Part shown: positions 1-20,026 of the stretch, in pieces
Numbering within the stretch: the stretch's first letter is position 1
How the letters are laid out: each line of letters begins with the position of its first letter
NCBI GenBank assembly: GCA_964467735.1
Contig: CAYXSR010000002.1
Coordinates: forward strand, 51,885-115,884
From: an uncultured Pseudomonadales bacterium
GTDB taxonomy: Bacteria > Patescibacteriota > Microgenomatia > UBA1400 > CAYXSR01
DNA length: 64,000 nt
Direction of reading: 5' to 3'
Position numbers and translations under genes: made by a program
Notes under the pieces: model-generated
What the model was told of the DNA's origin: nothing
Databases searched by the model: none
The model's input: only the letters and a program-made list of their open reading frames with translations

Positions 1-610
1 TTGGGTTAATTAATTGGATTTCCTGCTGAGCCTCATCGAGTTTTTTAATTGACTCATCTATTTGAGGCATTATTTTATCTAATGTTTCAACTATTTTAAC
101 TAACCGTTCCTCTGTACTGCCTCCAGAAAAACTACCTTTACCTTTAAAACCCAAAACGTCAGCATAAGGAGCAATCGCTCCGGTTAAAATTTCTCCTGCC
201 TCTATTCCTTTTATAGCGGCATTTAAACCTCTCTCACCATCCTTATAATAATTATTAAAAAATGGAATAATCTTTAACCAAGATAAAATCCGATAAGCTT
301 TTTTTGTCTCTTCTAATTTAGTTTTGGTGGCTTTTAACTTTTCATCTGTCTGAATTAAATCTTGTTCTTTTACTGAATTATAAGCTTCTTGACCTAAAGT
401 TAATGCTTGTTTAGCTTTCGCAATTACCGGTTTTGTCATTAAAAAGCAAATTCCTGAAAAAACCAATAAAAAACCAATAACAATTATTAAAATTTTCAAC
501 CACTTCTTTTTAGTCTTTGGTTTTATTGGATCGACTAAGGATTCACTCTTATTAATTTTTGGTTGGTTATTTTTAGCTTCAAAATTTATTTTTCCTATTT
601 GTTCTACCAT
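1..610 (-). CDS. Hypothetical membrane-anchored protein (partial; C-terminus lies beyond the window start)
   Basis: Minus-strand frame open from ATG at 610..608 to the window edge (my manual translation: MVEQIGKINFEAKNNQPK...WLKILIIVIGFLLVFSGICFLMTKPVIAK...). There is one N-terminal TM helix followed by a hydrophilic domain. It is not in the supplied ORF track, presumably because it runs off the edge. Its start overlaps the stop of the upstream sugar transferase by a few nt, which suggests co-transcription. Confidence 0.4.
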   Translation of the reverse strand, partial: MVEQIGKINFEAKNNQPKINKSESLVDPIKPKTKKKWLKILIIVIGFLLVFSGICFLMTKPVIAKAKQALTLGQEAYNSVKEQDLIQTDEKLKATKTKLEETKKAYRILSWLKIIPFFNNYYKDGERGLNAAIKGIEAGEILTGAIAPYADVLGFKGKGSFSGGSTEERLVKIVETLDKIMPQIDESIKKLDEAQQEIQLINP

Positions 611-1224
611 TTGCTTATCATTGCTTTTGGCGTTTTTAATAAAATAAGTAAATCTTGCCAAAAAGAATGACTCCTTGCATATTTATAATCCATTCTAGCA
701 CGTTTATCGAAAGGAATCTCGTTCCTTCCGGAAGTTTGCCATGGCCCGGTTATCCCTGGCTTAACTGATAAAATTGTTTTTATTAAAGGTTTTGTTTTGG
801 GATATTTTTTAACTTGTTCTTTTAATTCCCTTTCAACATAAGCTCTTGGACCAACAATACTCATCTCTCCTTTTAAAACATTCCATAATTGAGGAAATTC
901 ATCAATCGTCAAATTTCTCAATAATCTTCCTAACCTTGTAATTCTCGGGTCATTTTTAAGCTTCCAATCACCTTTTTTAAATTTTTTTAAAAGTTCTTTA
1001 TCTTTTTCAAAAAGAATTTCATCAGCATTCTCCACCATTGTTCTGAATTTATAAAGCTTAAATTTCTTTCCTTTTTTACCTAATCTTTCATGGCTATAAA
1101 TAATTGATCCCTTTGACTGAAGTTTTATTAAAATAGGGACTATAAACCAAATTGGAAAAAAAATTACCGCCAAAAAAAGAGCTAAACAAATATCTATAAT
1201 TCTTTTTACACACTGATAATTCAT
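604..1224 (-). CDS. Polyprenyl-phosphate sugar phosphotransferase (bacterial sugar transferase, PglC/WbaP-C-domain type; initiating enzyme)
   Basis: 206 aa with a single N-terminal TM helix, then the family motifs KFRTM..NAD, DEFPQLWNVLKGEMSIVGPR, and KPGITGPWQ. These are the classic Bac_transf signature. Confidence 0.8.
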   Translation of the reverse strand: MNYQCVKRIIDICLALFLAVIFFPIWFIVPILIKLQSKGSIIYSHERLGKKGKKFKLYKFRTMVENADEILFEKDKELLKKFKKGDWKLKNDPRITRLGRLLRNLTIDEFPQLWNVLKGEMSIVGPRAYVERELKEQVKKYPKTKPLIKTILSVKPGITGPWQTSGRNEIPFDKRARMDYKYARSHSFWQDLLILLKTPKAMISKW

Positions 1225-1227
1225 AAG

Positions 1228-2316
1228 TTACTTTTCATAAAGGTTTTTATAAAGTTGCTTTACTTTCGGGGCCTGATCAAGTGGGCAAACTAACAAACCT
1301 TCAGCCGTATCAATAACAATTATATTGGAAAGACCAATTATTCCGGCAATTTTTTTATCCCGAGAAAAAATTAAAGAATTTTTAACATCTATTAGTTCTG
1401 TTTTACCAAGAATCACATTGCCATCTTTGTCTTTAGGTAAACCATAATAGATTAATTCCCAAGTTCCAAGATCTACCCAACCAATATCAACTGGTAATTC
1501 CCACTGTGTACCAGGTTTTAGTTTTTCAAACACGCCAAAATCAACTGAATTTTTCTCAATCTTAGGATATTCTTTATTAAGAACCTGAGTGTATTTGCTC
1601 GTCCCCATTGAGTCTGCAATTTTCTTTATTTTCTTGTAACAATCGGGTGCATGCTCTTTATATTTTTCCAACAAAAGTTGAGGTTTTGTTGCCATATAGC
1701 CAGAGTGAATTAAATATGTTTTGGCAGCTAAAAACTTTTTAGCAGTTGGCAAGTCTGGTTTCTCTACTTGTTTTAAAAACTCATAAACTTCAAACCCATC
1801 CTCACTTCTAAGTTTTTTACCAATTTTTATCCAACCGTTGTGGACTGATGGATAGGTTGGTTTCATATCTATGTGAACTACAACATTATTATCTCTTGAC
1901 AGTTGAGCAGCTTTTTTTAAGGCACTAACAAATGCTTTTTCTTTCCTAACTAAATGGTCCGCTCCCCAAAGAATAATCATTACTGAATTAGGGAATTTAT
2001 GGTTAATTGTGGCCGTCGCCAAAGCCACCGCTCCCAGGGTATCTCTCATCTCTGGTTCAAAAATTATATTTTCCTGGGGAATCTCTGGAGCATGTTTTCT
2101 AATAATTTCTTTATAGTCTTTACCAGTCGAAATGAATATATCCTCGGGACTAAAACCTTTTAATACTCTCTCGAAAGCCTGGCGGAAAAATGATTTTTCA
2201 CCTAAGATTGGACCAAACTGCTTAGGATGACCTATTTTGCTTATTGGCCACATCCTTGTCCCTCGACCACCACAAAAGAGGACTATCTTTGTGTCATTTT
2301 TTCCTGTCTTTTTCAT
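1228..2316 (-). CDS. manC: Mannose-1-phosphate guanylyltransferase (GDP-mannose pyrophosphorylase)
   Basis: N-terminus LFCGGRGTRMWPISKIGHPKQF (GGxGTRLWPxS...PKQF is the ManC/CpsB-type nucleotidyltransferase signature); 362 aa, so no PMI domain. Confidence 0.65.
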   Translation of the reverse strand: MKKTGKNDTKIVLFCGGRGTRMWPISKIGHPKQFGPILGEKSFFRQAFERVLKGFSPEDIFISTGKDYKEIIRKHAPEIPQENIIFEPEMRDTLGAVALATATINHKFPNSVMIILWGADHLVRKEKAFVSALKKAAQLSRDNNVVVHIDMKPTYPSVHNGWIKIGKKLRSEDGFEVYEFLKQVEKPDLPTAKKFLAAKTYLIHSGYMATKPQLLLEKYKEHAPDCYKKIKKIADSMGTSKYTQVLNKEYPKIEKNSVDFGVFEKLKPGTQWELPVDIGWVDLGTWELIYYGLPKDKDGNVILGKTELIDVKNSLIFSRDKKIAGIIGLSNIIVIDTAEGLLVCPLDQAPKVKQLYKNLYEK

Positions 2317-3413
2317 ATATCCTCCACTAGTTTTTTAATTTTTTTAATAAAGACTTTCTGATTAAATCTTTTGACATTTTGTTGGCAATCTTTGGCTTTA
2401 AAATTTTTGGCCTTAAACTGCTGAACGGCTTGAACTAGACCTTCTACTGTTTGATTTTCAAAAAGAATACCCGTTTTACCATCAATAACTGTTTCTCCAA
2501 AACCTCCTTTAGTAAAAGCAATTACTGGCTTTCCCGCCGCTTGAGCCTCTATTGCCACTAGACCAAAATCTTCATTTTGAGCTAAAACTACTGCACAACA
2601 CTTTTGATAATAACCAATTAAAATATCATCTGTCAATTGACCAAGAAATTCGATATTATCTTTTGCCATACGTTTTAGTCTTTTTAGCTGATTACCGACG
2701 CCAATAATTTTTAATGGAAGCCTCAGTTTATTAAAAGCTTTAATCACTAAATCTAGCCTTTTATAGGGGACAAGTCTCGAAACTACCAAGAAAAAGTCTT
2801 TTTGGCTGGGTAAATTAGCAATATCCTTCTTCTTAAATCTTTTTATATCAACAGGTGGATAGACAATGATAGAATCTCTATTGTAGTATTTTTTAATTCT
2901 TCTTTGGGTCGTTCGGGAAATAGCTAAAAATTTATCTGGACGTTGAGCAGCAACATAGTCCCATTTTTTAAGAATTGGGGCTAAAAGATTAAAAATTTTT
3001 TTAACTAAGAAATTAAAATTATTAAAACCAGCATTGCCTATATAGTCTTTATATCCCGACCATAAATATCGAGTTGGTGTAAGACAATAACAAATATGAT
3101 TTGTTTTGGTATTGGTAATAACTCCTTTCGCTTCAGCACTAGTAACAGAAATAACTAGTTCAAAATCAGAAAAATCAAAAGATTCAAAAGCAAAAGGTGT
3201 TAACCATGGATAAAACTCATGTTTTTCACTCGCAAATGGAAATTTTTGCATAAAAGAAGGAGTTATCTTAAATCCCTGTGTCCATAAAGCTTTTTTTTGA
3301 TTATAAACAGCAGTGAAAAAGGGTGCCTCTGGCCAGACTTCATGTAAAACTTGCAAGATCCTCTCTGCCCCTCCAATTTTATTAAGTCGATCATAAACAA
3401 TCGCTACTCTCAT
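2313..3413 (-). CDS. Glycosyltransferase family 4 (GT-B)
   Basis: C-terminal GT4 motif: VVSRLVPYKRLDLVIKAF...EDFGLVAIEAQAAGKPVIA. Confidence 0.75.
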   Translation of the reverse strand: MRVAIVYDRLNKIGGAERILQVLHEVWPEAPFFTAVYNQKKALWTQGFKITPSFMQKFPFASEKHEFYPWLTPFAFESFDFSDFELVISVTSAEAKGVITNTKTNHICYCLTPTRYLWSGYKDYIGNAGFNNFNFLVKKIFNLLAPILKKWDYVAAQRPDKFLAISRTTQRRIKKYYNRDSIIVYPPVDIKRFKKKDIANLPSQKDFFLVVSRLVPYKRLDLVIKAFNKLRLPLKIIGVGNQLKRLKRMAKDNIEFLGQLTDDILIGYYQKCCAVVLAQNEDFGLVAIEAQAAGKPVIAFTKGGFGETVIDGKTGILFENQTVEGLVQAVQQFKAKNFKAKDCQQNVKRFNQKVFIKKIKKLVEDI

Positions 3414-4567
3414 AAATTTCTTTTATAAATTTGAAAAGTTTCATCTTTTGTTTTTTGCCAGGAGAAATTTTTAACTCTCTGTTTTCCTGTCTTAATAAGC
3501 TTTCTTCTCAATTCATTAGAGGAATGGATTGTTCTAATCTTCTCAGCGATATCATCAATATCCAAAGGATTAAAATATAAAGCTGCTTTATCATAAATCT
3601 CTGGCAAAGAACTCTGTTTACTTGATAACACCGGACAACCAGCTGCCATTGCTTCTAATCCTGGCAGACCAAAACCCTCCATTAAAGAAGGAGTAATAAA
3701 AGACAATGATTCATAGTATAGTATTTTCAAATCTTCATCATTTACAAATCCCAAACATTTAACAAAATTTTCTGCTTTATAATTTTTAATAGTTTTCTTT
3801 AACCTTTGAAGAAAAACATCCCTTGCACAAACAATTATTAAATTAATCATTTTTTCGTTGGTTGAAAATTGATTTGCCTTTTTTAATCCTAGAATTAAAC
3901 GTTCTAAATTTTTATGAGGATAGACACTCCCGACATACAATAAATAAGGTTTTTTTAAATTATATTTTTTTAACACTCTTTTACTTATTGTTTTTGATTT
4001 AATCTCGTTAAATTTCTCCTCTACCCCTTCATAAATTACACTAATTTTTTCTGTGACAAGAGAAGGATATTTTTTAATTAATTTCTTCTTCACCCATTTA
4101 CTTGGAACAATTATTTTCTCTGCTCGTTTTACTGCTAGGTAAAAGATTAAATGATAGTTTAAATATTTAAACCAATAAATAAAAGGATTCTTTGTGGTAG
4201 TAGCCAGTCCTTTCGATTCGTGTTTTATAAGATCATGAATCGTAACTACGTATTTACTAAAGTAAAAAATTGGAACATTAAAATGAGGAAAATGAACTAA
4301 GTCAAATTTTTCTTTTGCCAAAAAAAAGGGAAAAAAAAGCTGCTCTTTTATTGAGTAATGATCAATATTTGTTTTAATATAGAAAAATTTGTTTCCTAAC
4401 TCTTTTTTTATTTTTAAAAATTCTTCTGATTTAACAATTAGCCAAAAATCAATATTATTTGTTTGTTTGTTTTTAATTTGTTTAATCAAATTTTTTATAT
4501 AACGCCCAATTCCTGCATGTTTTAAACCATACATCCGAGCATCAATAGCAATTTTAAAATGTTTCAT
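3410..4567 (-). CDS. Glycosyltransferase family 4 (GT-B)
   Basis: YVGSVYPHKNLERLI...EGFGLPGLEAMAAGCPVLSS (EX7E-type GT4 motif). Confidence 0.75.
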   Translation of the reverse strand: MKHFKIAIDARMYGLKHAGIGRYIKNLIKQIKNKQTNNIDFWLIVKSEEFLKIKKELGNKFFYIKTNIDHYSIKEQLFFPFFLAKEKFDLVHFPHFNVPIFYFSKYVVTIHDLIKHESKGLATTTKNPFIYWFKYLNYHLIFYLAVKRAEKIIVPSKWVKKKLIKKYPSLVTEKISVIYEGVEEKFNEIKSKTISKRVLKKYNLKKPYLLYVGSVYPHKNLERLILGLKKANQFSTNEKMINLIIVCARDVFLQRLKKTIKNYKAENFVKCLGFVNDEDLKILYYESLSFITPSLMEGFGLPGLEAMAAGCPVLSSKQSSLPEIYDKAALYFNPLDIDDIAEKIRTIHSSNELRRKLIKTGKQRVKNFSWQKTKDETFQIYKRNL

Positions 4568-4573
4568 TTTAAA

Positions 4574-5467
4574 CTATTTAAAAAAATTGATAATTATTCT
4601 AATAAAACCTTTTAAAGTTATTCCAAATAAAACTAGCTTTGTTAACCATCGTGGATATTTATTTTTATAAAATTTATTATAAAAAATTCTCATTGCTCTA
4701 ATTGATTCTTTTGCGGCTTTAATTCTTGTTTGACGATTTATTTTTATATCCTTGGTTTCTTCCCTTAAACCAGAACTTGCTCCTTTATAATGGATGGCTT
4801 TTGCTTTTGGATAATAAAATATCTGCCAGCCTTTTTCTTTGGCACGATAACAAAAATCAATATCTTCTCCATAAAAAAAATAATTCTCGTCCCACCAACC
4901 TATTCGGTCACCCACTTCTCGTCTTACCAACATAAAAGCTCCACAACAAGCATCTATCTGGTGGGGTTTATCTAAATTTAAATAAAACTGGTGATATTGA
5001 CTGAATAATCGATTTCTAGGAAAGATTTTTTCTAATCCACTAAAATAACAAAAAGCTCCCCAAGGAGTAGGAAATCCACGATGACAATCAGAATCCATTC
5101 TACCATCTCTTAGTTTTAACTTTGGCGTCACCACACCAATTTTTTTATTCTTTCTTAAGAATTTTAATAATAAAAGTATGTTTTCAGGAGAAACTAAGAC
5201 ATCCCCGTTAATAAAAAGTAAATACCTACCTTTAGCTTTTTTAACTGCTAAATTATTTCCGGCAGAAAAACCAATATTTTCTTTGTTTTCGATTAATTTA
5301 ATTTCGGGAAAATTATTCTTCATCATCTCCACACTCTTATCGCAAGAAGCATTATCAACAACAACAACTTCGCTAGAAACTTGCTTTTTTATGTCTTTTA
5401 ATAAATTTAATGATTTAGAGATAATTTCTCTATTATTAAAATTTAAAATTATTATAGAAAGCTTCAT
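4574..5467 (-). CDS. Glycosyltransferase family 2 (GT-A)
   Basis: N-terminus LSIIILNFNNREIISKSL...VVVVDNASCDKSVE...GFSAGNNLAVKKAKGRYLLFINGD (DxD-type GT2 fold). Confidence 0.75.
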   Translation of the reverse strand: MKLSIIILNFNNREIISKSLNLLKDIKKQVSSEVVVVDNASCDKSVEMMKNNFPEIKLIENKENIGFSAGNNLAVKKAKGRYLLFINGDVLVSPENILLLLKFLRKNKKIGVVTPKLKLRDGRMDSDCHRGFPTPWGAFCYFSGLEKIFPRNRLFSQYHQFYLNLDKPHQIDACCGAFMLVRREVGDRIGWWDENYFFYGEDIDFCYRAKEKGWQIFYYPKAKAIHYKGASSGLREETKDIKINRQTRIKAAKESIRAMRIFYNKFYKNKYPRWLTKLVLFGITLKGFIRIIINFFK

Positions 5468-5482
5468 ATTATTTTAATTCCT

Positions 5483-6664
5483 TTAAATTTCTCGATAAAT
5501 TTTGTTAAGGTCTTTGGCAATGTTATACCAATCATACCTTTCAAAAACTAATTTTTGGGCAGCCTTGCTTATATTATTGTTTAAAGTTTTATTTTCTAAA
5601 AGCTCTATCGTCTTCTCTACCATGTCATTTTCATCACTACCAACCAAAACATGTTTTCCTGATTGAAGATCTATCCCCTCAATACCCAAAGGAGTTGTTA
5701 CGACAGAAACCCCCGCCGCCATTGATTCCAAAATTTTATAACGCGTCCCTCTTCCTAGTCTTAGTGGGGCTATCAAAACATCGGCTATAGAAAAAATGTC
5801 TCTTATATCTTCAATATTCTCTTTCAAAACTACCCCTTCTGTTTTTTTAATCAATTCCGCAAGAGACATTGATGGATTCTTTCCAACAATCAAAAGTTTT
5901 GCATTGGGTATCCTTTGATAAATCTTTGGCCAAATTTCTTTAACAAGAAAATTCACCGCATCGCTATTTGGTAACCAGCTAAAATTCCCAACAAAAATAA
6001 CAAGCGGATTTTTTTGTTTTTGTTTCTTAATTTTCTCAAAAAAATCTCTATCGATTCCGTTGGGAATTAATACAACCTTTCTAAAAGAAATTTTCTCCAT
6101 AATTTTTTTGTCTTCTGTAGAAACTGCGATCAATTTTTCACTCCTTTTCCAATAATATTTCTCCCAAAAAATAAGCTTTAATAAATCAAAGTATAGAAAT
6201 GGCTTTAATAGAAGATTTTTTTTATCTATATATTTTCTAAAAACCAAATACTCTATATTGTGTTCTGCTAATACTAATGGTGGTTTTTTAACTCCTAGTA
6301 AGGATAATAAGACATAAAATGTCTCCGAGCTAATTAAATCATAATTATTTAAAAGCTCTTCCTTTAGTAATTTTCTAGCTTTTAAAGAAAAATAACTAAT
6401 CATTAAAAGAGGAAATGGCGAAAAGGCAGTTAAAAAAAGATTGAATAAAGACCAAATATTTCTCCTTCTAACGTAAATTACTTTATGACAAATTTTTTCC
6501 ACCTCAGATATATATTTTTCTTCATTGTCTCTTAAAAAGGTAAAAAGAGTAATTTCGTGTTGCTGAGAGATGTTTCTCAATAAATTATAGGCACGAATTC
6601 TGCCACCACTAATTAAAGGATAAGGTAAAACCGGAGAAACAAACAGGATTTTCATTTTTGACAA
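5483..6664 (-). CDS. Glycosyltransferase family 4 (GT-B)
   Basis: C-terminal PLRLGRGTRYKILESMAAGVSVVTTPLG is GT4-like. Confidence 0.7.
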   Translation of the reverse strand: MSKMKILFVSPVLPYPLISGGRIRAYNLLRNISQQHEITLFTFLRDNEEKYISEVEKICHKVIYVRRRNIWSLFNLFLTAFSPFPLLMISYFSLKARKLLKEELLNNYDLISSETFYVLLSLLGVKKPPLVLAEHNIEYLVFRKYIDKKNLLLKPFLYFDLLKLIFWEKYYWKRSEKLIAVSTEDKKIMEKISFRKVVLIPNGIDRDFFEKIKKQKQKNPLVIFVGNFSWLPNSDAVNFLVKEIWPKIYQRIPNAKLLIVGKNPSMSLAELIKKTEGVVLKENIEDIRDIFSIADVLIAPLRLGRGTRYKILESMAAGVSVVTTPLGIEGIDLQSGKHVLVGSDENDMVEKTIELLENKTLNNNISKAAQKLVFERYDWYNIAKDLNKIYREI

Positions 6665-8079
6665 TCTACCAGTTTAGCAATTATATAATCGTCAGTCTTT
6701 TCAAGAACACAAAACTTTTGTTCTATATATTCAGTTTCTGGACCAAAATCAAAATTAACATAATGAGTGGCTCCTTTACTAATAAGTTTATCTATTTCTA
6801 TTCCCTGAGGCCAACCATCTCTATTAATTTGATATAAAAAGGCAGTATCACCACCCAAAGGAGCAATCACTTTTGCTTCTTTGGGTAAAATTTCATCTGC
6901 TCTTCGTCCAGCAGTAATCATCTTAAAATTATTAATATTGAAAAAATCCCTAACTTGATACCAAGAAAATGCCCACATAAAAACAAAACATATAAAAAGA
7001 AATAACTTAGAAAAAACTTTTCTAAATTCTTTTATTGGAGCAAGTATCACTTTTGCTCCTTTACCAAGAAAAACGCAAATTACTGGCACCAAAAGTATTT
7101 GGTAATAATCATGCTGAATGTTGCCCCTTGCTACAACAATAAGATAAACAAGGGTCCCTAACAACCAAAAATCAAAGAACCTTCCTTCTTTTTTTTCTGT
7201 TTTGGCAATAATTCCTAGTATAAAAATAACTATTCCCCAATATCCCAAAATTAATTTGCTCAATCTCTCGGCAAATAACCACCTAAACCAAGCTGGCTTT
7301 AAACGCATTCCACCGGCATTTAAAAGCCACATATTTGCCGGAATACCCTCGGGAAAATGATTAATCCACCATCGCCACCATAAAAAAGGAACTATTGAAA
7401 TCAATAAATAAGTCCCTGTAAAAAAAAGTGACCTTGTTAATCCCTTTTGTCTCCAAAGTAAATAAAAAATACTGGGGGCAATAATAAATAAAGTAAATGG
7501 TTTGATCAATATAGAAATAGCTGTAAAAATTAGGAAATTACCTAAATATATCTTGCTATTTTTTCTAATAAATCTTAAAAAAAAGTAAATAGCTCCTAAC
7601 ATTGTCATAATCATCATTGGTTCTGGAAGAATTACTCTTGAATAATAAATATTAAAAGGAAGAACGGCAAAGAAAAAACTAGCTAATAATGCCATAGGAA
7701 AATCAATCAAATCTTTGACAATAAAAAATAGAAAAATTAAACTAAAACAGGAAAAAATATTAGAAATTAGTCTTCCCCATATCTCAAGACTAAAAAAACT
7801 CAGATTCTTTGCCAAAAAGGCATGAACAATATTATAGCTTGGAAATTCAACAAACCGATAGCCTTCTGGATTATCTTTTCCGGATGGAATATTAGAAAGG
7901 TCATTAAAACGAGGGTGTAAGATATCAAATCCTTTTTGAACAAAACTTCTTGAAACTGCTGAAGTATCAGCTTGGCGCCAGGAATGCCAATCAGCTATTG
8001 GGTTTCTAATCCTATACAATCTAAGGATAAAATTGATTAAAACAATTACAGATAATAATATAATCTGCTTTTTATTCAT
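6652..8079 (-). CDS. Polytopic membrane glycosyltransferase, GT-C fold (ArnT/PMT-like, lipid-carrier dependent)
   Basis: 475 aa with about 11 predicted TM helices. The first extracytoplasmic loop carries a conserved acidic motif (HSWRQADTS...) like the loop of GT39/GT83 enzymes. The N-terminal motif pattern resembles ORF 57844..59304 (GWESARD). Confidence 0.45.
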   Translation of the reverse strand: MNKKQIILLSVIVLINFILRLYRIRNPIADWHSWRQADTSAVSRSFVQKGFDILHPRFNDLSNIPSGKDNPEGYRFVEFPSYNIVHAFLAKNLSFFSLEIWGRLISNIFSCFSLIFLFFIVKDLIDFPMALLASFFFAVLPFNIYYSRVILPEPMMIMTMLGAIYFFLRFIRKNSKIYLGNFLIFTAISILIKPFTLFIIAPSIFYLLWRQKGLTRSLFFTGTYLLISIVPFLWWRWWINHFPEGIPANMWLLNAGGMRLKPAWFRWLFAERLSKLILGYWGIVIFILGIIAKTEKKEGRFFDFWLLGTLVYLIVVARGNIQHDYYQILLVPVICVFLGKGAKVILAPIKEFRKVFSKLFLFICFVFMWAFSWYQVRDFFNINNFKMITAGRRADEILPKEAKVIAPLGGDTAFLYQINRDGWPQGIEIDKLISKGATHYVNFDFGPETEYIEQKFCVLEKTDDYIIAKLVDCQK

Positions 8080-11000
8080 TTACTTCTATTATCTCATCGC
8101 CTAAATATTCTTTTAGATTATTCTGTTCATCAAAAACAAAAACATAAGTTGGTAAAGTCGATTTTTTATAATCCTTAGCGCTTTCTAATTCAGAAACTTT
8201 AACAACCCCTAATGTCTGATCACGGTAGATAAACCATAATGCATCTTCTAATCCTACTGGAAAAACCCAAGCATTTTCATATTTTATGGGAACGTTTACA
8301 AAACAAAGTGTTGCTCCCTCTGGAAATTCAAGATAATTATCTTTTAAGGCTCTTAGTGTTGTATAGGAAATATCAGAGGCTTTACTCCATTGCTGAAGCT
8401 GCCTGATAGTCAATTTTATAAAATAAATTGATAGAAACAATGATGTTAAAATTAAAAACACCATCCTGATTTTATATCTCCTTACCCTGTAGACAAAAGA
8501 AACCAAGACAAATGCCAGAATTGCACTAAAACCAAAAGAAGCTAAATAATTATAACGAATACTTATATTGCCCAGTCCCAAAAACGGCAATAGACTAATA
8601 AAAGATAAGGAAAAGAAGAAAAATATTATCTTTCCATCGATATAAACTTTTGATAGCTTCACATTTAATCTTTTTTTCAATTTTAAAATTATAACAGTAA
8701 TAAAAATTAAAATTATAACAAACCAAAAAATATGTTCTCGCCAAAAACCTCTTAGGTTCTGATAGAAAGGAAGAAATTCTGTTCCTAAGATAGTTAAACC
8801 AAGATATCCAAATAAATTACCCACAAAGTTAATTGGTAGTTTTAAAAAGTTATAATTGTAATCACCCGATAACCAATGAGAAGAGGCTATTAAACGCATA
8901 AATAGATAAAAGGCTGCTTCGGCACCAAAAAGAAGAACAAAAATAAAATCCCTTTTATCTTTCTTACTGAAAAGAAATACAAGTAGACATAGAAGAGGAA
9001 AAACTATTCCTGATTCATGAGAAAAAAGCGCCAGTAAGCCCAAAATTGATATTAAAATTAAAAATATTATCCTTTCAAAAGATTTGTTCGTTTGTAAAAA
9101 ACGAAACCAAAAATAAAGTCCCCAGATAGTAAACAAAGCAGAAAGGGCAATCATTATCCCTGAGCTCCAAACAACAGTCTCTATTTGGGAAGGAATAATG
9201 GTGAAAAATAAAGCTGCTAAGAAAGCAGTTAGTTTTCGTCCGGTATATTTTCTGGTCAATAAAAATACTCCTAAAGCGGTAAAAAGATGAATAATTATAC
9301 TTGTTGCATGATAACCAAATGGTTTTAGCCAAAAAATAGAATAAAGAAGGAAAAAATAGATTTTTCCAATCGGTCGATAGAAAAAACCAGCTGCGTCAAT
9401 AAATGGCAAATAAATATCTTTAAAAGAAAAGTTTGCTCCCCATTTCAACCAGGTAAAATCGTCACCAATAAAATAATTATTTAAACTGCCAGAATATAGC
9501 AACAAACCAACAATACAAATAAAAATAAAGAGAATAAAAGGAGAAGTAATAAATTGTTCAATGTTTCTTTTCAAATCAATCTTTCGACTAGAGTTAAAAC
9601 TAATAAAAATCCCCATTAAAATACCGATAAGAGGCCAAACTGTAAAGGCCACCTTAGAGGCTTCAAAAATATCAATCATTAAAGCATTTATTGCAACTCC
9701 AAATATACCTCCTAAAATTCCTGCTGCCATACTTTTAAAAAATGAGTCTTTTATTGAAGAAAAAGCTTTCTTTGTCCAAAAATAAATCAACAAAAATATA
9801 CTAAGGAAGCTAAGTAGGCCTAATAGTCCCGTCTCTCCCAACGTTCGTAAATAACTATTATCGGTTGCTAGAGAAATTGAAGAATAACCAGAGCCTGTTA
9901 ATATATTTCTTTTAAAAGCATTTATTGCTCTCGGCCATGTTCCTTGAAATCTTGTTGTAAAAGAAATGTCATACACTAATGCCTTTTGGATTAAAAAACT
10001 ACCAGAAATTGTTGCGATCTCGCTTGCTTTAGTAGCCACTTCTAAAGTCTCATATAGAGGAGTAGCAATTTTCTTTTTTATCACCGCCACTGAGGTGGCG
10101 GCTGGACTATCTTCTAGACTTGTAGGAGGCAAGGCAATAAAACCAGTGCCCAAAGGTAGATCTTCTTCAGCAACTTCATCTTCTTCGGTGATAACTTTTC
10201 CCAATTTTTCAATATCCTCTAGTTTGGCAATTGGCTTCCCCGTTACTTTATCATAAACAACATTTTCTACTCTAAAAGTTTTACTTAATCTTTCTGACAT
10301 TTGGCCGACAGAATTGCTCAGAAAAAAACTAATAAGAATAACTGGAATAATAAATTTTTTCTGTTTCAGTAAAACTAAAACTAAACTAATCGCTAACAAA
10401 TAAACTAAAAAAGAAACTCTTGAGGCCGTCAACAACAATAACTCATAAGCACCGATAAATAAAATAAAATAAAAGATTTTAGCTAACTTATTTTTAATAC
10501 CAAAAAAAAGGGCCCCAAACAAAGAAAGCATCAATACCAAGTAGGCTGCCAAGTCGTAATGTCCGCCAAAAGTAGAAGTAATTCTGTTGTTTGGGCCAAG
10601 TCTTAGAGGAATACCTTTAGCAAATTCCTCGTTCATAGTTAGATAAGCAGGCAAACCCATAAACTTCTGACCAAAACCATAAATTATAACTCCCACCAAA
10701 CCAATAATAATCGCCACCAAATAAAATTTAATTAATTTGTTATTCTCTTTCACTGTGGTGTAAACAAAGAAAAAAGGAATTATATATTCTATGCGTCGCA
10801 AATAATGAAGAATGGATACATTTGGAAAAAAATTAGCTAAGTGGGGTGCTAAAAAAATTAAAGCTACAACAGTAGATAGCAACCCTACTAACCAATAAAT
10901 AAATATTGCCCCTGTCAGAGGAGTCCTCAACCGATCTCTATTTCTTACAACCTTTGCTAAAAAAATAATTGTTAAAAACGCAACCAGTAAATCTTCTATT

Positions 11001-11149
11001 CTTATATAAGTCCAAGTATGTGAAATCCCAAACAAAGGAAGCTTGGGATAAATAGGAATAAAGATAAAATAGATAAAAATTCCTATTGGTAAAAGCCAGC
11101 GATCAAAAGCCCCTAATAATCTGATGATAAATTTGTCTTTTTGCATCAT
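8072..11149 (-). CDS. Two-module membrane protein: N-terminal O-antigen ligase/Wzy_C-like domain fused to a C-terminal PMT/TMTC-like GT-C domain
   Basis: Residues ~1-520 are polytopic and contain TASRVSFLVYLL and ...ILTGSGYSSISLATDNSYLRTLGETGLLGLLSFL. This matches the Wzy_C/O-antigen ligase consensus (G.G.G....hNsyLqllaE.GiiGl). An acidic insert (EEDEVAEEDLPLG...) interrupts this module. Residues ~540-1025 form a second polytopic module with YFIGDDFTWLKWGAN, resembling the F..DD...I..N motif of PMT/TMTC-type GT-C enzymes, followed by an extracytoplasmic C-terminal domain. The start may be later than 11149, since there is a 47-nt overlap with the next gene. Confidence 0.5.
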   Translation of the reverse strand: MMQKDKFIIRLLGAFDRWLLPIGIFIYFIFIPIYPKLPLFGISHTWTYIRIEDLLVAFLTIIFLAKVVRNRDRLRTPLTGAIFIYWLVGLLSTVVALIFLAPHLANFFPNVSILHYLRRIEYIIPFFFVYTTVKENNKLIKFYLVAIIIGLVGVIIYGFGQKFMGLPAYLTMNEEFAKGIPLRLGPNNRITSTFGGHYDLAAYLVLMLSLFGALFFGIKNKLAKIFYFILFIGAYELLLLTASRVSFLVYLLAISLVLVLLKQKKFIIPVILISFFLSNSVGQMSERLSKTFRVENVVYDKVTGKPIAKLEDIEKLGKVITEEDEVAEEDLPLGTGFIALPPTSLEDSPAATSVAVIKKKIATPLYETLEVATKASEIATISGSFLIQKALVYDISFTTRFQGTWPRAINAFKRNILTGSGYSSISLATDNSYLRTLGETGLLGLLSFLSIFLLIYFWTKKAFSSIKDSFFKSMAAGILGGIFGVAINALMIDIFEASKVAFTVWPLIGILMGIFISFNSSRKIDLKRNIEQFITSPFILFIFICIVGLLLYSGSLNNYFIGDDFTWLKWGANFSFKDIYLPFIDAAGFFYRPIGKIYFFLLYSIFWLKPFGYHATSIIIHLFTALGVFLLTRKYTGRKLTAFLAALFFTIIPSQIETVVWSSGIMIALSALFTIWGLYFWFRFLQTNKSFERIIFLILISILGLLALFSHESGIVFPLLCLLVFLFSKKDKRDFIFVLLFGAEAAFYLFMRLIASSHWLSGDYNYNFLKLPINFVGNLFGYLGLTILGTEFLPFYQNLRGFWREHIFWFVIILIFITVIILKLKKRLNVKLSKVYIDGKIIFFFFSLSFISLLPFLGLGNISIRYNYLASFGFSAILAFVLVSFVYRVRRYKIRMVFLILTSLFLSIYFIKLTIRQLQQWSKASDISYTTLRALKDNYLEFPEGATLCFVNVPIKYENAWVFPVGLEDALWFIYRDQTLGVVKVSELESAKDYKKSTLPTYVFVFDEQNNLKEYLGDEIIEVNE

Positions 11150-11996
11150 TTTTAAGTATAGCAGAAAAAATAATTCTATTTAGAATCCCAATTTTTAAAA
11201 TTATTCTAGCAATAAATTTCTGAAAAGATGATCTGTGTTTGTTGAAAAAATAAATTATTCCTCCAATTTCATTTGAGATTGCTCTTGCCAACCATTCCCT
11301 GCTCAACCCTTGTCTGAAGTGAATTATCTTGATAAATGGAAGGTAAAAAATCCTTATTCCTTTGTCTTTTGCCCGATAACATAAATCTACCTCTTCCATG
11401 TGCATAAAAATTTTTTCATCAAATCCTCCTAGCCTGTTAAAAACTGATTTCTTCATCAATAAAAAAGCTCCTGTCACCCAATCTACTTCTCTTTCTTTAT
11501 TATAAAAAGTTCTATTCTCCTGATGAAATGGTTTCAAAAATAAATTAAGAATAGGAATATCATCAATAAAAAAAGCCCAGTAAAAAAGGTTTTTTAATGA
11601 GGGAAAAAACCCTGCTGACGGCTGAATTGTCTTGTTTTTATTAAAGATTTGACAACCAATAATTGCCTCCTGTTTAAAGTTATAAATCCATTCTATTGTT
11701 TGCTTAAAATTATCACTCAATACCTCCGTATCAGAGTTCAAGAATAATAAATATTTTCCTTTTGCTTTTTTTGCTGCCTGATTATTAGCTATACCAAAAC
11801 CAACATTTTCTTTATTTTCAATAATTTTCACTTTGGGGAATAATTTCTTTGTCTTTCTAACAGAATTGTCAGAAGAATTATTATCAACTATTATCAGTTC
11901 AAAATTAACCGATTTTATCTTTTCAAAAATCGATCTTAAACAATTTTCTAAAATTGTCTCAGTATTATAGGAAACAATTATTATTGAAAGAAGCAT
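11103..11996 (-). CDS. Glycosyltransferase family 2 (GT-A)
   Basis: The track ORF extends to 12086. The likely true start is the internal Met (MLLSIIIVSYNTETILENCL...IIVDNNSSDNS...GFGIANNQAAKKAKGKYLLFLNSD). Its ATG at 11996..11994 sits 1 nt after the upstream gene's stop. Confidence 0.7.
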   Translation of the reverse strand: MLLSIIIVSYNTETILENCLRSIFEKIKSVNFELIIVDNNSSDNSVRKTKKLFPKVKIIENKENVGFGIANNQAAKKAKGKYLLFLNSDTEVLSDNFKQTIEWIYNFKQEAIIGCQIFNKNKTIQPSAGFFPSLKNLFYWAFFIDDIPILNLFLKPFHQENRTFYNKEREVDWVTGAFLLMKKSVFNRLGGFDEKIFMHMEEVDLCYRAKDKGIRIFYLPFIKIIHFRQGLSREWLARAISNEIGGIIYFFNKHRSSFQKFIARIILKIGILNRIIFSAILKNDAKRQIYHQIIRGF

Positions 11997-11997
11997 G

Positions 11998-12591
11998 TTA
12001 TTGAAATAATCTTGGCCTGCCCAAACGATAATTAAGATTAACTGCCTTTCTTTTTCTGATTGGTTTCGCTGGAACACCACCAACAACAGTCATTTCTGGA
12101 ATATCTTTAGTGACTACTGCACCAGCCGCTACGACAGCTCCTCTGCCAATTTTTATTCCGGGTAAAATTATTACTCTGGGACCAATAAAAACATAGTCTT
12201 CAATTAGAACTTGTTCTTCTGTGGCATGAAAGTCTTCAGAATCAATATTATGTTCTGAATTATAAATTAAAACCTGTGAGGCAATATCAACATGGTTCCC
12301 AATTTTTATCTTTGCCCTTCCATCCAAAAAACAATGATCACCAATAATTGTGTCTTCACCAATCTCTATAGCAAGGGGCTTAAAAAAATTTGCCCACATA
12401 TGAATCGTTGAACCACTGCCAATTTTAACTCCGGCTATAGTATAAAACAACCTTCTAACACAATGAGAAGGAATAAATCCTACCCAGCGCAACAACATTA
12501 ACTCAAAATCAAGCCAGCAATTATAAAAACGATTAAGAATTCTTAAATAAATTTCCTTATTTGTTAATTCTCTGCCTATTTTGTCTTTCAT
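11998..12591 (-). CDS. Sugar O-acetyltransferase, left-handed beta-helix (hexapeptide repeat) family
   Basis: IGDHCFLDG...IGNHVDIASQVLIYN...VFIGPRVIILPGIKIGRGAVVAAGAVVTKDIPEMTVVGGVPAKPIRKR (WcaF/maltose-acetyltransferase-like). Confidence 0.7.
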   Translation of the reverse strand: MKDKIGRELTNKEIYLRILNRFYNCWLDFELMLLRWVGFIPSHCVRRLFYTIAGVKIGSGSTIHMWANFFKPLAIEIGEDTIIGDHCFLDGRAKIKIGNHVDIASQVLIYNSEHNIDSEDFHATEEQVLIEDYVFIGPRVIILPGIKIGRGAVVAAGAVVTKDIPEMTVVGGVPAKPIRKRKAVNLNYRLGRPRLFQ

Positions 12592-13681
12592 AAAACTCTA
12601 TTAACTCTTCTAATACTAATTCTGCTGATCTTCGCCAGGAAAACTTTTTAAACTGCTTAAAACCATTATTTATCAACTTTTTTCTCTCGGCTTCATTTAA
12701 TTTTAACACTTTGGCTAACGCTTGCGCAATTGAATCTACATCTTGGGGGTTATCTATATAAATTGCTGCCTTATCGGCTACCTCAGGCAAACTGGCAACC
12801 CGAGAACAAACTACCAATGTTCCTACCGCCATTGCTTCCAGAATCGGAATACCAAAGCCTTCCCATAAAGAAGGCAAAACTAATGCCCTTGCATCAGCAA
12901 TTAATTGTTGTTTTTCTTTCTCCTTTGTAAACCCAGTGAAAACAATTCTTTTTTCTAGTTTTAATTTTTTAACAAGTTTAAAAATATCTTTATACAACCA
13001 GCCTTTTTTTCCAACAATCATAAGTTTGAACTCTTTTTTATCTAACTTATTAAAAGCCTCTATCAATCTTTTGATGTTTTTACTTGGTTTTAAGGTTCCT
13101 ACATAAATAAAATAATCTTTCTTTTGTTGTGATTTTATATTTATTTTTTTTCCATATACGCCTGGATAAATCACAATTATTTTTTCATTATCAATCTTAT
13201 AATTCTTCACTATATCCCTTTTGCTAAATTCAGATATGGTAATAATTTTTGCCGCTTTTTTTGTTGATTTTTTTGTCCAATATTTAAGCTGAAAATAGTC
13301 CTTTTTGGTAAATTGTTCTGGCCAACGCAAAAAACCAAGATCCATAATTGAAATTACAAAAGGAATTGGTGAAAAAGCAGGCCCATAATGAGAAGGACTG
13401 AAAAGAATATCTGGCCGTGGTCGTCCCAAAAAAAGTCTTTTTACCAAACCTGTCAAGGTCCAAAGTTTTTTCGGACCAAAAACTTCATACTGCCACCATT
13501 CAGTCGAAGGGGGAAAGTCCGGTAAAGGATCAGAATTCAAAAAAATTCTAAAATTTAAATATTGATAATTTCTACTGTTTTTTCTCAGTTGATAAATATT
13601 ATTTAAAAGCTCAAAGCTGAATTGGTTGACACCTACTCTTTTGCCTACATTAGCCTCATTAGCATCAATAGCAATTAACAT
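12557..13681 (-). CDS. Glycosyltransferase family 4 (GT-B)
   Basis: YVGTLKPSKNIKRLIEAF...EGFGIPILEAMAVGTLVVCSRVASLPEV. Confidence 0.75.
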   Translation of the reverse strand: MLIAIDANEANVGKRVGVNQFSFELLNNIYQLRKNSRNYQYLNFRIFLNSDPLPDFPPSTEWWQYEVFGPKKLWTLTGLVKRLFLGRPRPDILFSPSHYGPAFSPIPFVISIMDLGFLRWPEQFTKKDYFQLKYWTKKSTKKAAKIITISEFSKRDIVKNYKIDNEKIIVIYPGVYGKKINIKSQQKKDYFIYVGTLKPSKNIKRLIEAFNKLDKKEFKLMIVGKKGWLYKDIFKLVKKLKLEKRIVFTGFTKEKEKQQLIADARALVLPSLWEGFGIPILEAMAVGTLVVCSRVASLPEVADKAAIYIDNPQDVDSIAQALAKVLKLNEAERKKLINNGFKQFKKFSWRRSAELVLEELIEFYERQNRQRINK

Positions 13682-14745
13682 CTAATTGCCTCCATGTATG
13701 CTTTTAGCGTATTTTCAGCGGTTTGTCTCCAAGTAAACTTTTTTACTTGAGTTTTTCCTTCTTTTATTAACTTAGTCCTTAAATCCTTTTTTTCTAAAAC
13801 CTTTTCAATTGCTCTAGTAATGCTATTAGTTGACAAAGGATCTATTAGAATAGCCGCTTTACCAGCTAGTTCTGGTAAGCTTGATAAATTAGAAGTAATC
13901 ACTGGGCAACTAGCAGCCATGGCTTCTAATATTGGCAAACCAAAACCTTCATAAAGACTTGGGTAAACAAAAACTTTTGCATGTTTATATAACAACTTGA
14001 GTGTTTCCTCTGGTACAAAACCCAAAATATTTATTTGTTCGTTTTTAAAATTTAATTGTTTATTCCCCCATCCATATTTTCCAGCAATTACTAATTTTAC
14101 GTTTTTGTTTTTCTTTATTACTACTCGAAAAGCATTAATTAACCTTTTTAAATTCTTTCGTGGCTCTCTTGTTCCAACAGTTAAAATATAATCACCTTCT
14201 ACTAAAGACTCTCCTTCTGCTTTATTTTCTTCTACACCAAGATAAATCACTTTAATTTTCTTTTTAGGAATACCAATAATTTTAATTAAATCTTCTTTTG
14301 TCGAATAGGAATCAGCAATAATCAAATCGGCCTCTTTTTTAACCCACCTCATTCTTCTCTTATGAGTTTCAACAATTTTAGGATGAAGGGTTTGGGGATA
14401 CTTCCAGGGAGTTAAATCATGAACTGTGGTCACTAGTCGAGTTTTTTTTACTGGCGGTTGTGTCCAATCAGAACAATGGAAAATATCAATCTTTCCAATA
14501 AAGTTCTCAATTGGAAAGATATGAAATCTATTCCATAAAATATCTAACAAAGAAGGCGGTAGACCAAACTTTTTAATTTCTGCTCTAGAAAAATTCTCAT
14601 TTAGTTTTCTTCTTAATGAAGAAAAAAATAAAACATAATCATTTTCTTTATCTATCTTAAGCAGGTATTCCACTAATTTAGCTGTATAACGTGCTACCCC
14701 TGTTCCTTGATAAATAATTTGGCTTATATCAATTCCTATTCTCAT
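13675..14745 (-). CDS. Glycosyltransferase family 4 (GT-B)
   Basis: VGTREPRKNLKRLINAF...EGFGLPILEAMAASCPVITSNLSSLPEL. Confidence 0.75.
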   Translation of the reverse strand: MRIGIDISQIIYQGTGVARYTAKLVEYLLKIDKENDYVLFFSSLRRKLNENFSRAEIKKFGLPPSLLDILWNRFHIFPIENFIGKIDIFHCSDWTQPPVKKTRLVTTVHDLTPWKYPQTLHPKIVETHKRRMRWVKKEADLIIADSYSTKEDLIKIIGIPKKKIKVIYLGVEENKAEGESLVEGDYILTVGTREPRKNLKRLINAFRVVIKKNKNVKLVIAGKYGWGNKQLNFKNEQINILGFVPEETLKLLYKHAKVFVYPSLYEGFGLPILEAMAASCPVITSNLSSLPELAGKAAILIDPLSTNSITRAIEKVLEKKDLRTKLIKEGKTQVKKFTWRQTAENTLKAYMEAIRC

Positions 14746-19649: not shown

Positions 19650-20026
19650 TTATGAAATCGAAGTTTACTTTTAACAAAAATCAACAATTCATTGATTATC
19701 CATTTGCAAAGACCAAGACTTATAAAAATAAACTCCCAAACTGCAAAAGCTTCGGCCAACCTTTCTCTTTTGGTTATTAAAACAAAAGGAACAGGAATTA
19801 GGAAAAAAATTGCGATTAAGAAAAACCATCTTTCTTCGAAAGATAAAACATAAAAAATTAAAAGCCAATATAAAAAAACAAAAGCAGTAAAAGAACTATT
19901 CAATCCTCTAAAAATAAAAACACCTGCCAAAGATAAAAGGAAACCAGCCAATATGGCTGCTATTCTTATTTTGTTGTTTTTTCTTAAACCTTTAAGAACT
20001 GTATTAATCTTCTTTATTTTATTCAT
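19646..20026 (-). CDS. Small membrane protein (3-4 TM helices), unknown function
   Basis: 126 aa and hydrophobic. It sits between the paralogous giant membrane proteins and overlaps both neighbours by a few nt. Confidence 0.4.
   Translation of the reverse strand: MNKIKKINTVLKGLRKNNKIRIAAILAGFLLSLAGVFIFRGLNSSFTAFVFLYWLLIFYVLSFEERWFFLIAIFFLIPVPFVLITKRERLAEAFAVWEFIFISLGLCKWIINELLIFVKSKLRFHK

Follow-up and report, generated by a model that had tools for sequence, protein, structure and literature searches.

A single gene in the 64,000-nucleotide stretch of DNA analysed here (the window) is a genuine fusion that places two outward-facing glycosyltransferases with lipid-linked donors in one protein. 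Most likely its product is a bifunctional extracytoplasmic enzyme, in which an N-terminal module of the WaaL/Wzy_C type would polymerise or ligate a glycan linked to undecaprenyl diphosphate (Und-PP) and a C-terminal GT-C_A module would attach a sugar carried on polyprenyl phosphate. The single 1025-aa polypeptide described in an earlier note on this DNA is borne out, given that ORF translation and full-length homologs delimit an uninterrupted ORF of 1025 codons at 8072..11149 (minus strand, stop included), with an ATG start and no internal stops. The probability of 1025 stop-free codons at the base composition of the window is about 1e-39. All three peptides quoted in that note are present in the protein, GSGYSSISLATDNSYLRTLGETGLLGLL at residue 419, YFIGDDFTWL at residue 559 and EEDEVAEEDLPLG at residue 322.

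The fused architecture is widespread, a relative of the fusion being encoded by at least 572 species-representative genomes. Among the 120 best database homologs, all of which are 890-1072 aa long and carry both halves within one gene, query coverage is 91-100%, except for P0103 (71%). The matches to the N- and C-terminal halves share one ORF in 81 of 81 related loci examined, and thus the question of whether homologs are fused or occur as adjacent genes was answered in favour of fusion in both sets, and a frameshift or assembly join at residues 520-540, singled out beforehand as the weak point of the claim, is excluded. In two metagenomic contigs (L083 and L085) the halves are separate genes that adjoin and overlap, an arrangement that could suggest that a sequencing or assembly error had joined two neighbouring genes in the window. 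However, both breaks sit in an A-run and the deletion of one A gives a single ORF again, so that these split forms are more likely to be errors or secondary fissions, judging from their sequence, and do not constitute clean "Rosetta stone" evidence. Since the fused form is also found in independent assemblies, in all 120 best matches and all 81 loci, the artefactual origin of the fusion is effectively refuted and retains only a vanishing chance of being right. Residue conservation was counted over 195 family sequences with only 35-50% identity. R118, R189, R244, R287, R400, D430 and R435 are conserved in 100% of them, R592, H614, E657, R752, D763 and R865 of the C-module in at least 97%, and the putative active-site residues of both modules are invariant.

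The N-module (residues 1-518; 9596..11149, minus strand) has a 12-TM WaaL/Wzy_C fold of the GT-C_B class. Structure predictions were run on each half separately, and the 12 TM helices and the large extracytoplasmic loop before TM10 that characterise the WaaL-type fold were both found, independently confirming the earlier assignment of this half as Wzy_C/O-antigen-ligase-like. The Pfam check was less uniform, as the window protein reaches only 17 bits (E 0.005) against Wzy_C (PF04932), under the cut-off of 31.7, whereas 30 of 33 homologs match at E<=0.01 (best 3e-13) and the split-gene homologs, with 33.1 and 32.3 bits, exceed the cut-off. By profile score, membership in Wzy_C holds for the family overall and is sub-threshold for the window sequence. 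The NCBIfam search with the fusion protein gave no match, and because a profile search with the full-length family alignment against PDB sequences returned nothing at E<=10, fold was used to establish relationships. The donor of this module would be an Und-PP-linked glycan.

In WaaL, a His activates the acceptor and two Arg bind Und-PP (PMC10920833). Counterparts of this Arg pair (R191/R265 in Cm WaaL, R215/R288 in E. coli WaaL) are present in the N-module, both being Arg in 195/195 sequences. R244, in a TASR motif (10418..10420, minus strand), aligns with the first diphosphate-binding Arg, R215 of E. coli WaaL, in an HMM alignment of the family with WaaL, and R400, in TTRFQGxWPRA (9950..9952, minus strand), is the candidate for the second and is, by motif pattern alone, probably equivalent to E. 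coli R288. In contrast, the catalytic His of the ligases (H338 in E. coli, H313 in Cm) is replaced by Asp. When the WaaL motif H[NSQ]x9Gxx[GTY] is written as a regular expression, it picks out H338-N-x9-G-x-x-G in E. coli WaaL; with Asp in place of His, it picks out D430-N-x9-G441-x-x-G444 in the fusion protein (9818..9862, minus strand). On the Pfam Wzy_C profile, D430 and H338 share roughly position 130, and Asp occupies this position in 195/195 sequences. Model confidence is low in the loop bearing D430 (pLDDT <50 at residues 424-431). In inverting polymerases and SEDS proteins, which are members of the same clan, the place of the ligase His is taken by Asp or Glu, accompanied by one or two conserved Arg (PMC10920833), and the invariant D430, R244 and R400 correspond to this pattern. 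Although the fold proposed for this half stands, the term "ligase" applied to it in the earlier note may therefore be the wrong word, and several hundred proteins labelled "O-antigen ligase family protein" in databases probably bear a misleading name.

Within the large extracytoplasmic loop of the N-module there is a variable beta-rich insert (residues 292-392; 9974..10276, minus strand), which is the least conserved region of the family and for which strands are predicted at low to moderate pLDDT. Relative to a 403-residue WaaL as reference, it measures 57-149 aa across the family (median 96). This insert had been noted as acidic and of about 110 residues; an extra insert is indeed found in every family member, but acidity is particular to the window sequence, since across the family net charge spans -10 to +8, with a median of -1. 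The two modules are separated by a short basic linker (residues 519-533; 9551..9595, minus strand), cytoplasmic by hydropathy and charge analysis, which in the 195 sequences, taken as residues 516-533, is 16-24 aa long with a median of 4 K/R. According to the same kind of analysis and to the models, 12 TM helices are followed by this K/R-rich linker and by an outward-running TM1 of the C-module, and therefore both active sites lie outside.

The C-module (residues 534-935; 8345..9550, minus strand) is a GT-C_A transmembrane module of about 11 TM helices. It gave a positive result in the fold test, and the assignment of this half as PMT/TMTC-like GT-C was thereby independently confirmed and a lack of GT-C similarity excluded. 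The acidic motif YFIGDDFTWL (9446..9475, minus strand), at the start of the first extracytoplasmic loop, contains the sole DD of the fusion protein, D563-D564, a putative catalytic or metal-binding site. D564 is conserved in 195/195 and D563 in 192/195 sequences, and the pair lies 6 residues past TM1 of the model (model helix 18-38), in agreement with the acidic loop expected of GT-C enzymes. The features of GT66 oligosaccharyltransferases (WWDxG and a large C-terminal periplasmic domain) are lacking in the fusion protein. The module is followed by an extracytoplasmic alpha/beta domain of about 85 residues (residues ~939-1025; 8075..8335, minus strand), modelled with strands and helices and marked by the invariant motif AWVFPVGLxDxLW, with P954, W961, P964 and G966 conserved in at least 99% of the sequences. 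By analogy with the carbohydrate-binding domains of GT-C enzymes (PMC11127046), this domain may bind the acceptor or the glycan.

Pfam detected no PMT, PMT_2 or MIR match on the window protein and no TPR at its C-terminus. PMT_2 matches 2 of 33 homologs, its cut-off being reached by distant relatives only, and the distant relatives P0251 and P0258 have PMT_2 plus TPR; judged from these searches, Pfam leaves the family essentially uncovered. These results bear on the idea of dual protein O-glycosylation, in which the N-module would be a PglL-like O-oligosaccharyltransferase and the C-module a PMT-like O-mannosyltransferase, both acting on secreted or S-layer proteins. This is improbable, given that the fusion protein has neither a MIR domain nor a Pfam PMT match and that Pmt4 leads AglB, ALG12 and ArnT only marginally in the fold comparison of the C-module. 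Moreover, O-oligosaccharyltransferases are not known to have lost the catalytic His, whereas the N-module has Asp, and no target protein for glycosylation is evident in the operon. Another alternative is that one module is catalytic and the other a degenerate scaffold or substrate-binding domain, as might be supposed from the missing canonical His of the N-module and from the fact that each half of the window protein falls below its Pfam cut-off. We consider this even less probable, since Asp at the His position is normal in related active enzymes (PMC10920833) and many invariant charged residues occupy the expected extracytoplasmic positions in both halves throughout a set of 195 sequences with identities of only 35-50%.

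The fusion gene is located in a gene cluster of conserved composition. A separate second GT-C (Pfam PMT_2, E 1.3e-12; 6652..8079, minus strand) overlaps the stop codon of the fusion and lies immediately downstream of it in 80 of 81 loci. Upstream there are genes for a GT2, a hexapeptide acyltransferase and two GT4 proteins (11103..14745, minus strand), found on the same strand in 73-75 of 81 loci. Further downstream, genes for GT4, GT2, GT4, GT4, an NTP-transferase and a Bac_transf phosphoglycosyl transferase (604..6664, minus strand) occur, where the flank is long enough, in 56-75 of 81 loci, in an order identical to that of the related locus L001, in which a DUF4012 protein follows the operon. 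The upstream GT2 and the Bac_transf labels come from Pfam on the window itself and the remaining ones from Pfam on the positional counterparts in L001. The source organism is linked by similarity to Gottesman-, Levy-, Shapiro-, Roizman- and Woesebacteria. The only Polysacc_synt (Wzx-like) protein in the window (53271-54563) is 40 kb off and borderline, its 28.1 bits falling just under the cut-off of 28.2; no dedicated synthase and flippase pair was identified next to the fusion gene, no co-polymerase was recognised, and no LPS core genes were noticed within the window. The profile of the C-terminal half of the family gave no significant alignment with the neighbouring PMT_2 protein or with the polytopic ORF 16412-17641, and for this reason an origin of the C-module as a recent duplicate of its neighbours was rejected. 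From its surroundings we infer that the fusion gene acts in one conserved Microgenomates surface-glycan operon.

Taken as a two-module enzyme in which the N-module acts as a Wzy-type polymerase, the protein finds what we regard as its best overall explanation, one to which we would assign about an even chance. In such a pathway, the phosphoglycosyl transferase and the GT4 and GT2 enzymes would assemble an acetylated, undecaprenyl-diphosphate-linked oligosaccharide on the cytoplasmic side of the membrane, and this oligosaccharide would then be flipped outward. R244 and R400 of the N-module would hold the Und-PP-glycan, and D430 could serve as general base for inverting transfer of the glycan to an acceptor hydroxyl. 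The C-module would supply the same glycan with one sugar, taken from a polyprenyl-monophosphate donor, this sugar forming a branch or serving as the acceptor or priming sugar, while the C-terminal domain would grip the glycan. The fusion might thus channel the product between the steps and set their stoichiometry. A Wzy-type polymerase is preferred to a WaaL/TacL-type ligase because Asp replaces the ligase His and because the conserved operon contains no other polymerase candidate. In addition, in a sister operon (L084) the GT-C module stands by itself beside ABC-transporter genes, with no Wzy_C module; this argument points in the same direction but is weak, since that genome might carry a ligase or polymerase at another site.

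Literature searches for Wzy_C plus PMT_2/GT-C fusions or O-antigen ligases in Patescibacteria or the candidate phyla radiation found no description of this architecture, just as the earlier note had been aware of no characterized example. Compared with WaaL (CAZy GT121; PDB 7TPG/7TPJ; E. coli WaaL) and its catalytic His, the family has an invariant Asp, an additional variable loop insert of about 96 residues and a fused second glycosyltransferase. We know of no Patescibacteria that make the lipid A-core, which is the acceptor of WaaL. The N-module is far more similar to WaaL than to SEDS, and among the inverting Wzy-type polymerases and SEDS (clan GT-C1; GT119, GT125-129) none has been described with a fused GT-C_A module such as that of the window protein. 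The closest described precedent is Brucella WadA, a bifunctional O-antigen ligase (GT25 + GT121) in which the ligase is fused to a coupled glycosyltransferase that acts on the same glycoconjugate, and for which coupled action has been proposed (PMC9938171; PMC10920833). Both proteins combine a Wzy_C-type module with a second glycosyltransferase in one polypeptide, but the partner in WadA is a soluble cytoplasmic GT25 of the GT-A type, N-terminal, dependent on a nucleotide sugar and on the opposite side of the membrane, whereas in the window protein it is a polytopic GT-C_A, C-terminal and with its active site facing outward like that of the N-module. The window protein gave no match to GT25 or to any other GT-A; its partner is a GT-C, so that only the principle of a coupled fusion is shared with WadA.

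Following that principle, the N-module could instead be a true WaaL/TacL-type ligase that hands over a finished Und-PP glycan en bloc, the recipient in this monoderm-like cell being a membrane glycolipid or another anchor. The GT-C would then make or decorate the acceptor sugar, comparable to the preparation of the core for ligation by the GT25 domain of WadA; this is a possible reading, and one that we hold as rather doubtful. For the second step of the preferred polymerase reading there are other points of comparison. From the PMT, PMT_2 and TMTC-like GT-C_A enzymes (GT39, GT105, GT83 ArnT) the window protein differs in having no significant PMT/PMT_2 match, MIR or TPR and in ending instead with a small alpha/beta domain that bears an invariant motif of its own. 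In three-component systems (GtrA/GtrB/GtrC; CsbB/GtcA/YfhO; the GT136 system), a GT-C adds sugars singly from polyprenyl-phosphate donors outside the membrane; its targets are Und-PP-linked or membrane-anchored glycans, and it acts before polymerisation and ligation or at about the same stage, as is proposed here, and GT-C decoration of Und-PP-linked glycans has precedent (PMC11127046). In those systems, however, the GT-C is separate from the polymerase or ligase, whereas in the window protein the two are fused.

A broader proposal is that the fusion is a composite machine, performing repeat-unit polymerisation or ligation from Und-PP and sugar addition from polyprenyl phosphate in one cycle, which together with the neighbouring PMT_2 protein would build a previously undescribed, Microgenomates-wide surface glycoconjugate central to the envelope of these episymbionts. 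We put this forward tentatively, as somewhat short of an even chance; if true, it would be the first enzyme joining GT-C_B and GT-C_A chemistries. The protein would also be the first case of a Wzy/WaaL-type Und-PP-glycan transferase and a PMT/TMTC-type polyprenyl-phosphate-sugar transferase being covalently joined on one side of the membrane, and therefore the physical coupling of polymerisation or ligation with decoration becomes directly testable. As a naturally fused two-step extracytoplasmic enzyme, it could serve as a part in glycoengineering. To our knowledge, there is almost no experimental information on the cell-envelope glycans of the candidate phyla radiation, and because at least 572 species-level genomes have kept this protein and its operon, they probably make a core component of the envelope of these bacteria.

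The gene at 8072..11149 (minus strand) is one uninterrupted, ATG-initiated ORF of 1025 codons with zero internal stops, encoding a single polypeptide as the earlier note had claimed, and the three peptides quoted there are found at residues 419, 559 and 322. At the ~30% G+C of the window stop codons are frequent, and the chance of a stop-free run of this length is ~1e-39. By hydropathy, the protein comprises a first block of ~12 TM segments with a 155-residue loop (residues 285-439), a 14-residue basic linker, and a second block of ~11 TM segments followed by a 110-residue soluble tail.

A homolog search of 5.8 billion proteins gave 1593 matches among the candidates scored, the best 120 of which are all 890-1072 aa long, with 39-84% identity to the fusion and 91-100% query coverage, except for the homolog P0103 (71%). 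With one genome scanned per species, at least 572 genomes encode a relative. The 80 loci among the matches listed all align from residue 1-36 through to residue 976-1025, and at 81 of 81 loci both halves match within the same ORF, with one unrelated break within the N-half; the inter-module linker measures 16-24 residues in 195 distinct sequences. A frameshift or assembly join at residues ~520-540, raised earlier as a way in which this could really be two genes, is therefore excluded, and the possibility that the fusion is an artefact is hardly credible. Named homolog records are all Microgenomates (Gottesman-, Levy-, Shapiro-, Roizman- and Woesebacteria, and 'Patescibacteria group'), and in public databases these proteins are named no more specifically than 'O-antigen ligase family protein' or 'hypothetical'. 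Many loci with the Microgenomates-type operon, including L003, L005 and L007, come from binchicken assemblies under the title 'uncultured Gammaproteobacteria bacterium', and others are titled Lysobacterales, Acidiferrales or Limnocylindrales; these titles are probably placeholders or mis-assignments.

As to whether relatives carry a fusion or adjacent genes, the modules are fused at all 81 loci, but two metagenomic contigs have adjacent overlapping genes in the same operon context: in L083 a Wzy_C gene (528 aa) adjoins a GT-C gene (516 aa) with an 11-nt overlap at 2982-2992, and in L085 the genes encode 507 and 498 aa and overlap by 20 nt at 6001-6020. Both breaks fall where A5-A6 runs encode the Lys-rich linker, and with one A fewer the two genes become a single ORF; the split could be either a true fission in which translation stays coupled or a homopolymer sequencing error. 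Stand-alone homologs of the C-half were also found (P0139, P0141, P0146 and P0163). In L086 (GCA_964406795.1) a 1061-aa fusion at 1984-5169 coexists with a stand-alone GT-C paralog two genes downstream (6001-7512, 503 aa, weak GtrII match), and in L084 the GT-C module adjoins ABC-transporter genes, and the locus has no Wzy_C gene. Such stand-alone forms indicate that the GT-C module can work without covalent linkage. Since ABC-dependent pathways do not need Wzy, the L084 arrangement agrees with the N-module being a polymerase, a weak argument because further genes may sit elsewhere in that genome.

The proposed Wzy_C domain in the N-half is borne out by the family, with Pfam Wzy_C matching 30 of 33 relatives (best E 3e-13), although the fusion's own sequence scores 17 bits, below the 31.7 cut-off. 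E. coli WaaL (MG1655) contains the motif H338-N-x9-G-x-x-G and essential R215 and R288. The counterpart in the fusion is D430-N-x9-G441-x-x-G444, H338 and D430 sharing profile position ~130 in the Pfam matches; R215 pairs with R244 in the HMM alignment, and R400, in TTRFQGxWPRA, corresponds to R288 by motif pattern. R244, R400 and D430 are conserved in 195 of 195 family sequences. WaaL binds the Und-PP phosphates through two Arg, and SEDS and the inverting polysaccharide polymerases of its clan have a conserved Asp/Glu where WaaL has His (Meitil et al., PMC10920833). Because D430 occupies the ligase His position, the N-module appears from these alignments to combine the diphosphate-binding apparatus of the clan with a base characteristic of polymerases, not of ligases. 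The description as O-antigen-ligase-like thus holds for the Wzy_C kinship and the clan Arg residues, but not for the defining His. That the N-module is nevertheless a ligase transferring glycan to a membrane anchor, like WaaL or TacL (PMC5727136), is possible but the less probable reading. The loop bearing D430 (residues 424-431) is modelled at low confidence (pLDDT <50). Compared with WaaL, the large loop is extended by residues 292-392, a segment for which beta strands are predicted; it is found in every family member (57-149 residues, median 96) and is less conserved than any other part of the protein. The atypical insert noted earlier is therefore real, but its acidity is not a family trait (net charge -10 to +8, median -1).

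In GT-C_A enzymes catalytic acidic residues lie just after the first TM helix. D563-D564, the only DD in the fusion, lies six residues past the first TM helix of the C-module, with D564 invariant and D563 98% conserved in the 195 sequences; inactivity of one module is very improbable. The C-half comparison gave 21.2 for Pmt4, 20.1 for AglB, 20.0 for ALG12, 19.2 for STT3B, 18.6 for Pmt2, 18.5 for ArnT, 17.5 for AftA and 16.9 for PglB. An exhaustive HMMER search with the C-half retrieved 17,209 cluster representatives at E<=1e-3, and its relatives at E ~1e-20 include PMT_2 + TPR proteins of TMTC-like architecture and one protein above the Pfam PMT cut-off. The label PMT/TMTC-like GT-C is thereby supported at superfamily level, for a family of its own that Pfam does not cover. 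The WWDxG oligosaccharyltransferase motif was not found in the fusion sequence, nor a MIR domain or TPR by Pfam, and a dual protein O-glycosylation enzyme seems unlikely. The last ~85 residues are modelled as an alpha/beta domain in which the motif AWVFPVGLxDxLW is invariant; by analogy with the C-terminal carbohydrate-binding domains of other GT-C enzymes (PMC11127046), this domain may bind the acceptor glycan.

The N-half is modelled with 12 TM helices. WaaL-fold proteins have 12 TM helices and both termini in the cytoplasm, and a cytoplasmic linker fits its basic composition (median 4 K/R). The GT-C module is accordingly predicted to start inside, with the DD loop and, after 11 helices, the C-terminal domain outside, so that both putative active sites would point outward.

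The fusion gene lies within a tightly packed minus-strand operon (GT4, GT4, hexapeptide acyltransferase, GT2, fusion, PMT_2-type GT-C, GT4, GT2, GT4, GT4, NTP-transferase and Bac_transf phosphoglycosyl transferase) that looks like a pathway building a repeat unit on undecaprenyl diphosphate. PMT_2, the upstream GT2 and Bac_transf are Pfam-confirmed in the window, the remaining labels coming from Pfam matches of positional counterparts in L001, the locus of a 46%-identical homolog with identical gene order. The PMT_2 gene (6652-8079) directly follows the fusion at 80 of 81 loci, and other neighbours, as far as the 6-kb flank extends to them, recur at 56-75 of the 81, without exception on the same strand. 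The mechanical ORF of the upstream GT2 (11103-12086, minus strand, TTG start) overlaps both neighbours; its true start is probably an internal ATG (MLLSIIIVSYN...), since the L001 homolog has 297 aa. Its stop overlaps the fusion start by 47 nt, consistent with translational coupling.

The evidence for the architecture is strong, and its function we infer as follows, at about even odds in our judgement. Cytoplasmic enzymes of the operon would assemble an acetylated oligosaccharide on Und-PP, which would then be flipped to the outer face. In the N-module, R244 and R400 would bind the diphosphate and D430 act as base, the glycan being transferred with inversion in Wzy-like chain growth, which we favour over transfer to a membrane anchor. 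The C-module would add a single sugar to the same glycan from a polyprenyl-phosphate donor, in the manner of the GT-C enzymes of three-component decoration systems (PMC11127046), and having both modules in one protein would couple these steps.

Among described bimodular enzymes the closest is WadA of Brucella, which joins a GT25 domain to a GT121 ligase (PMC9938171; PMC10920833) and which its authors called the first bifunctional O-antigen ligase (PMC9938171). In WadA the ligase is partnered by a cytoplasmic GT that uses a nucleotide sugar and sits across the membrane, whereas both putative sites of the fusion are predicted on the outer side. No report of a protein joining a WaaL/Wzy_C module to a GT-C_A module came up in our literature search, in agreement with the earlier remark that no characterised example was known. 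Both parts belong to known kinds, and the His, one of the features that define WaaL ligases, is absent; what is new is the combination of modules, the same-side topology and the lineage.

Almost the entire 64-kb window is devoted to glycan biosynthesis, with at least seven GT-C-type polytopic proteins, the fusion included. Outside the operon the window encodes at least five further PMT_2-type proteins, among them those at 56699-57847, 57844-59304, 61612-63237 and 47632-49458 (plus strand), the last (608 aa) with N-terminal PMT_2 and C-terminal TPR repeats, the architecture of eukaryotic TMTC O-mannosyltransferases in a Patescibacteria-like genome. A GT-C-type DUF2079 protein (14999-16411) adjoins two polytopic membrane proteins with no Pfam match, of 409 aa (16412-17641, plus strand) and 685 aa (17592-19649, minus strand), which may be further unclassified GT-C-like enzymes; the latter recurs ~5.8 kb upstream of the fusion at 17 of 81 loci. 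Two very large minus-strand ORFs (20019-23492, 1157 aa; 23497-26415, 972 aa) also lack a Pfam match; L084 and L001 have ORFs of comparable length (1129 and 1214 aa), likewise without a Pfam match, upstream of the glycan genes, and each of the two window ORFs has a weak BLAST match in L001 (~30% identity). A GT2 with three C-terminal hydrophobic segments (51511-52554, minus strand), a candidate polyprenyl-phosphate sugar synthase, and a nearby Wzx-like Polysacc_synt protein (53271-54563, minus strand; borderline at 28.1 bits against a 28.2 cut-off) may together provide and flip the lipid-linked substrates that the many GT-C enzymes use. At 37554-40531 (minus strand) a three-domain TPP-dependent enzyme adjoins a class I/II aminotransferase, and at 49973-51451 (minus strand) glycosyltransferases surround a B12-binding radical SAM enzyme, which together hint at unusual sugar or substituent chemistry. 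Together with ~11 GT2, ~10 GT4, five methyltransferases, aminotransferases, dehydratases/epimerases and two nucleotidyltransferases, this glycan gene load is unusually heavy for a lineage with small genomes.
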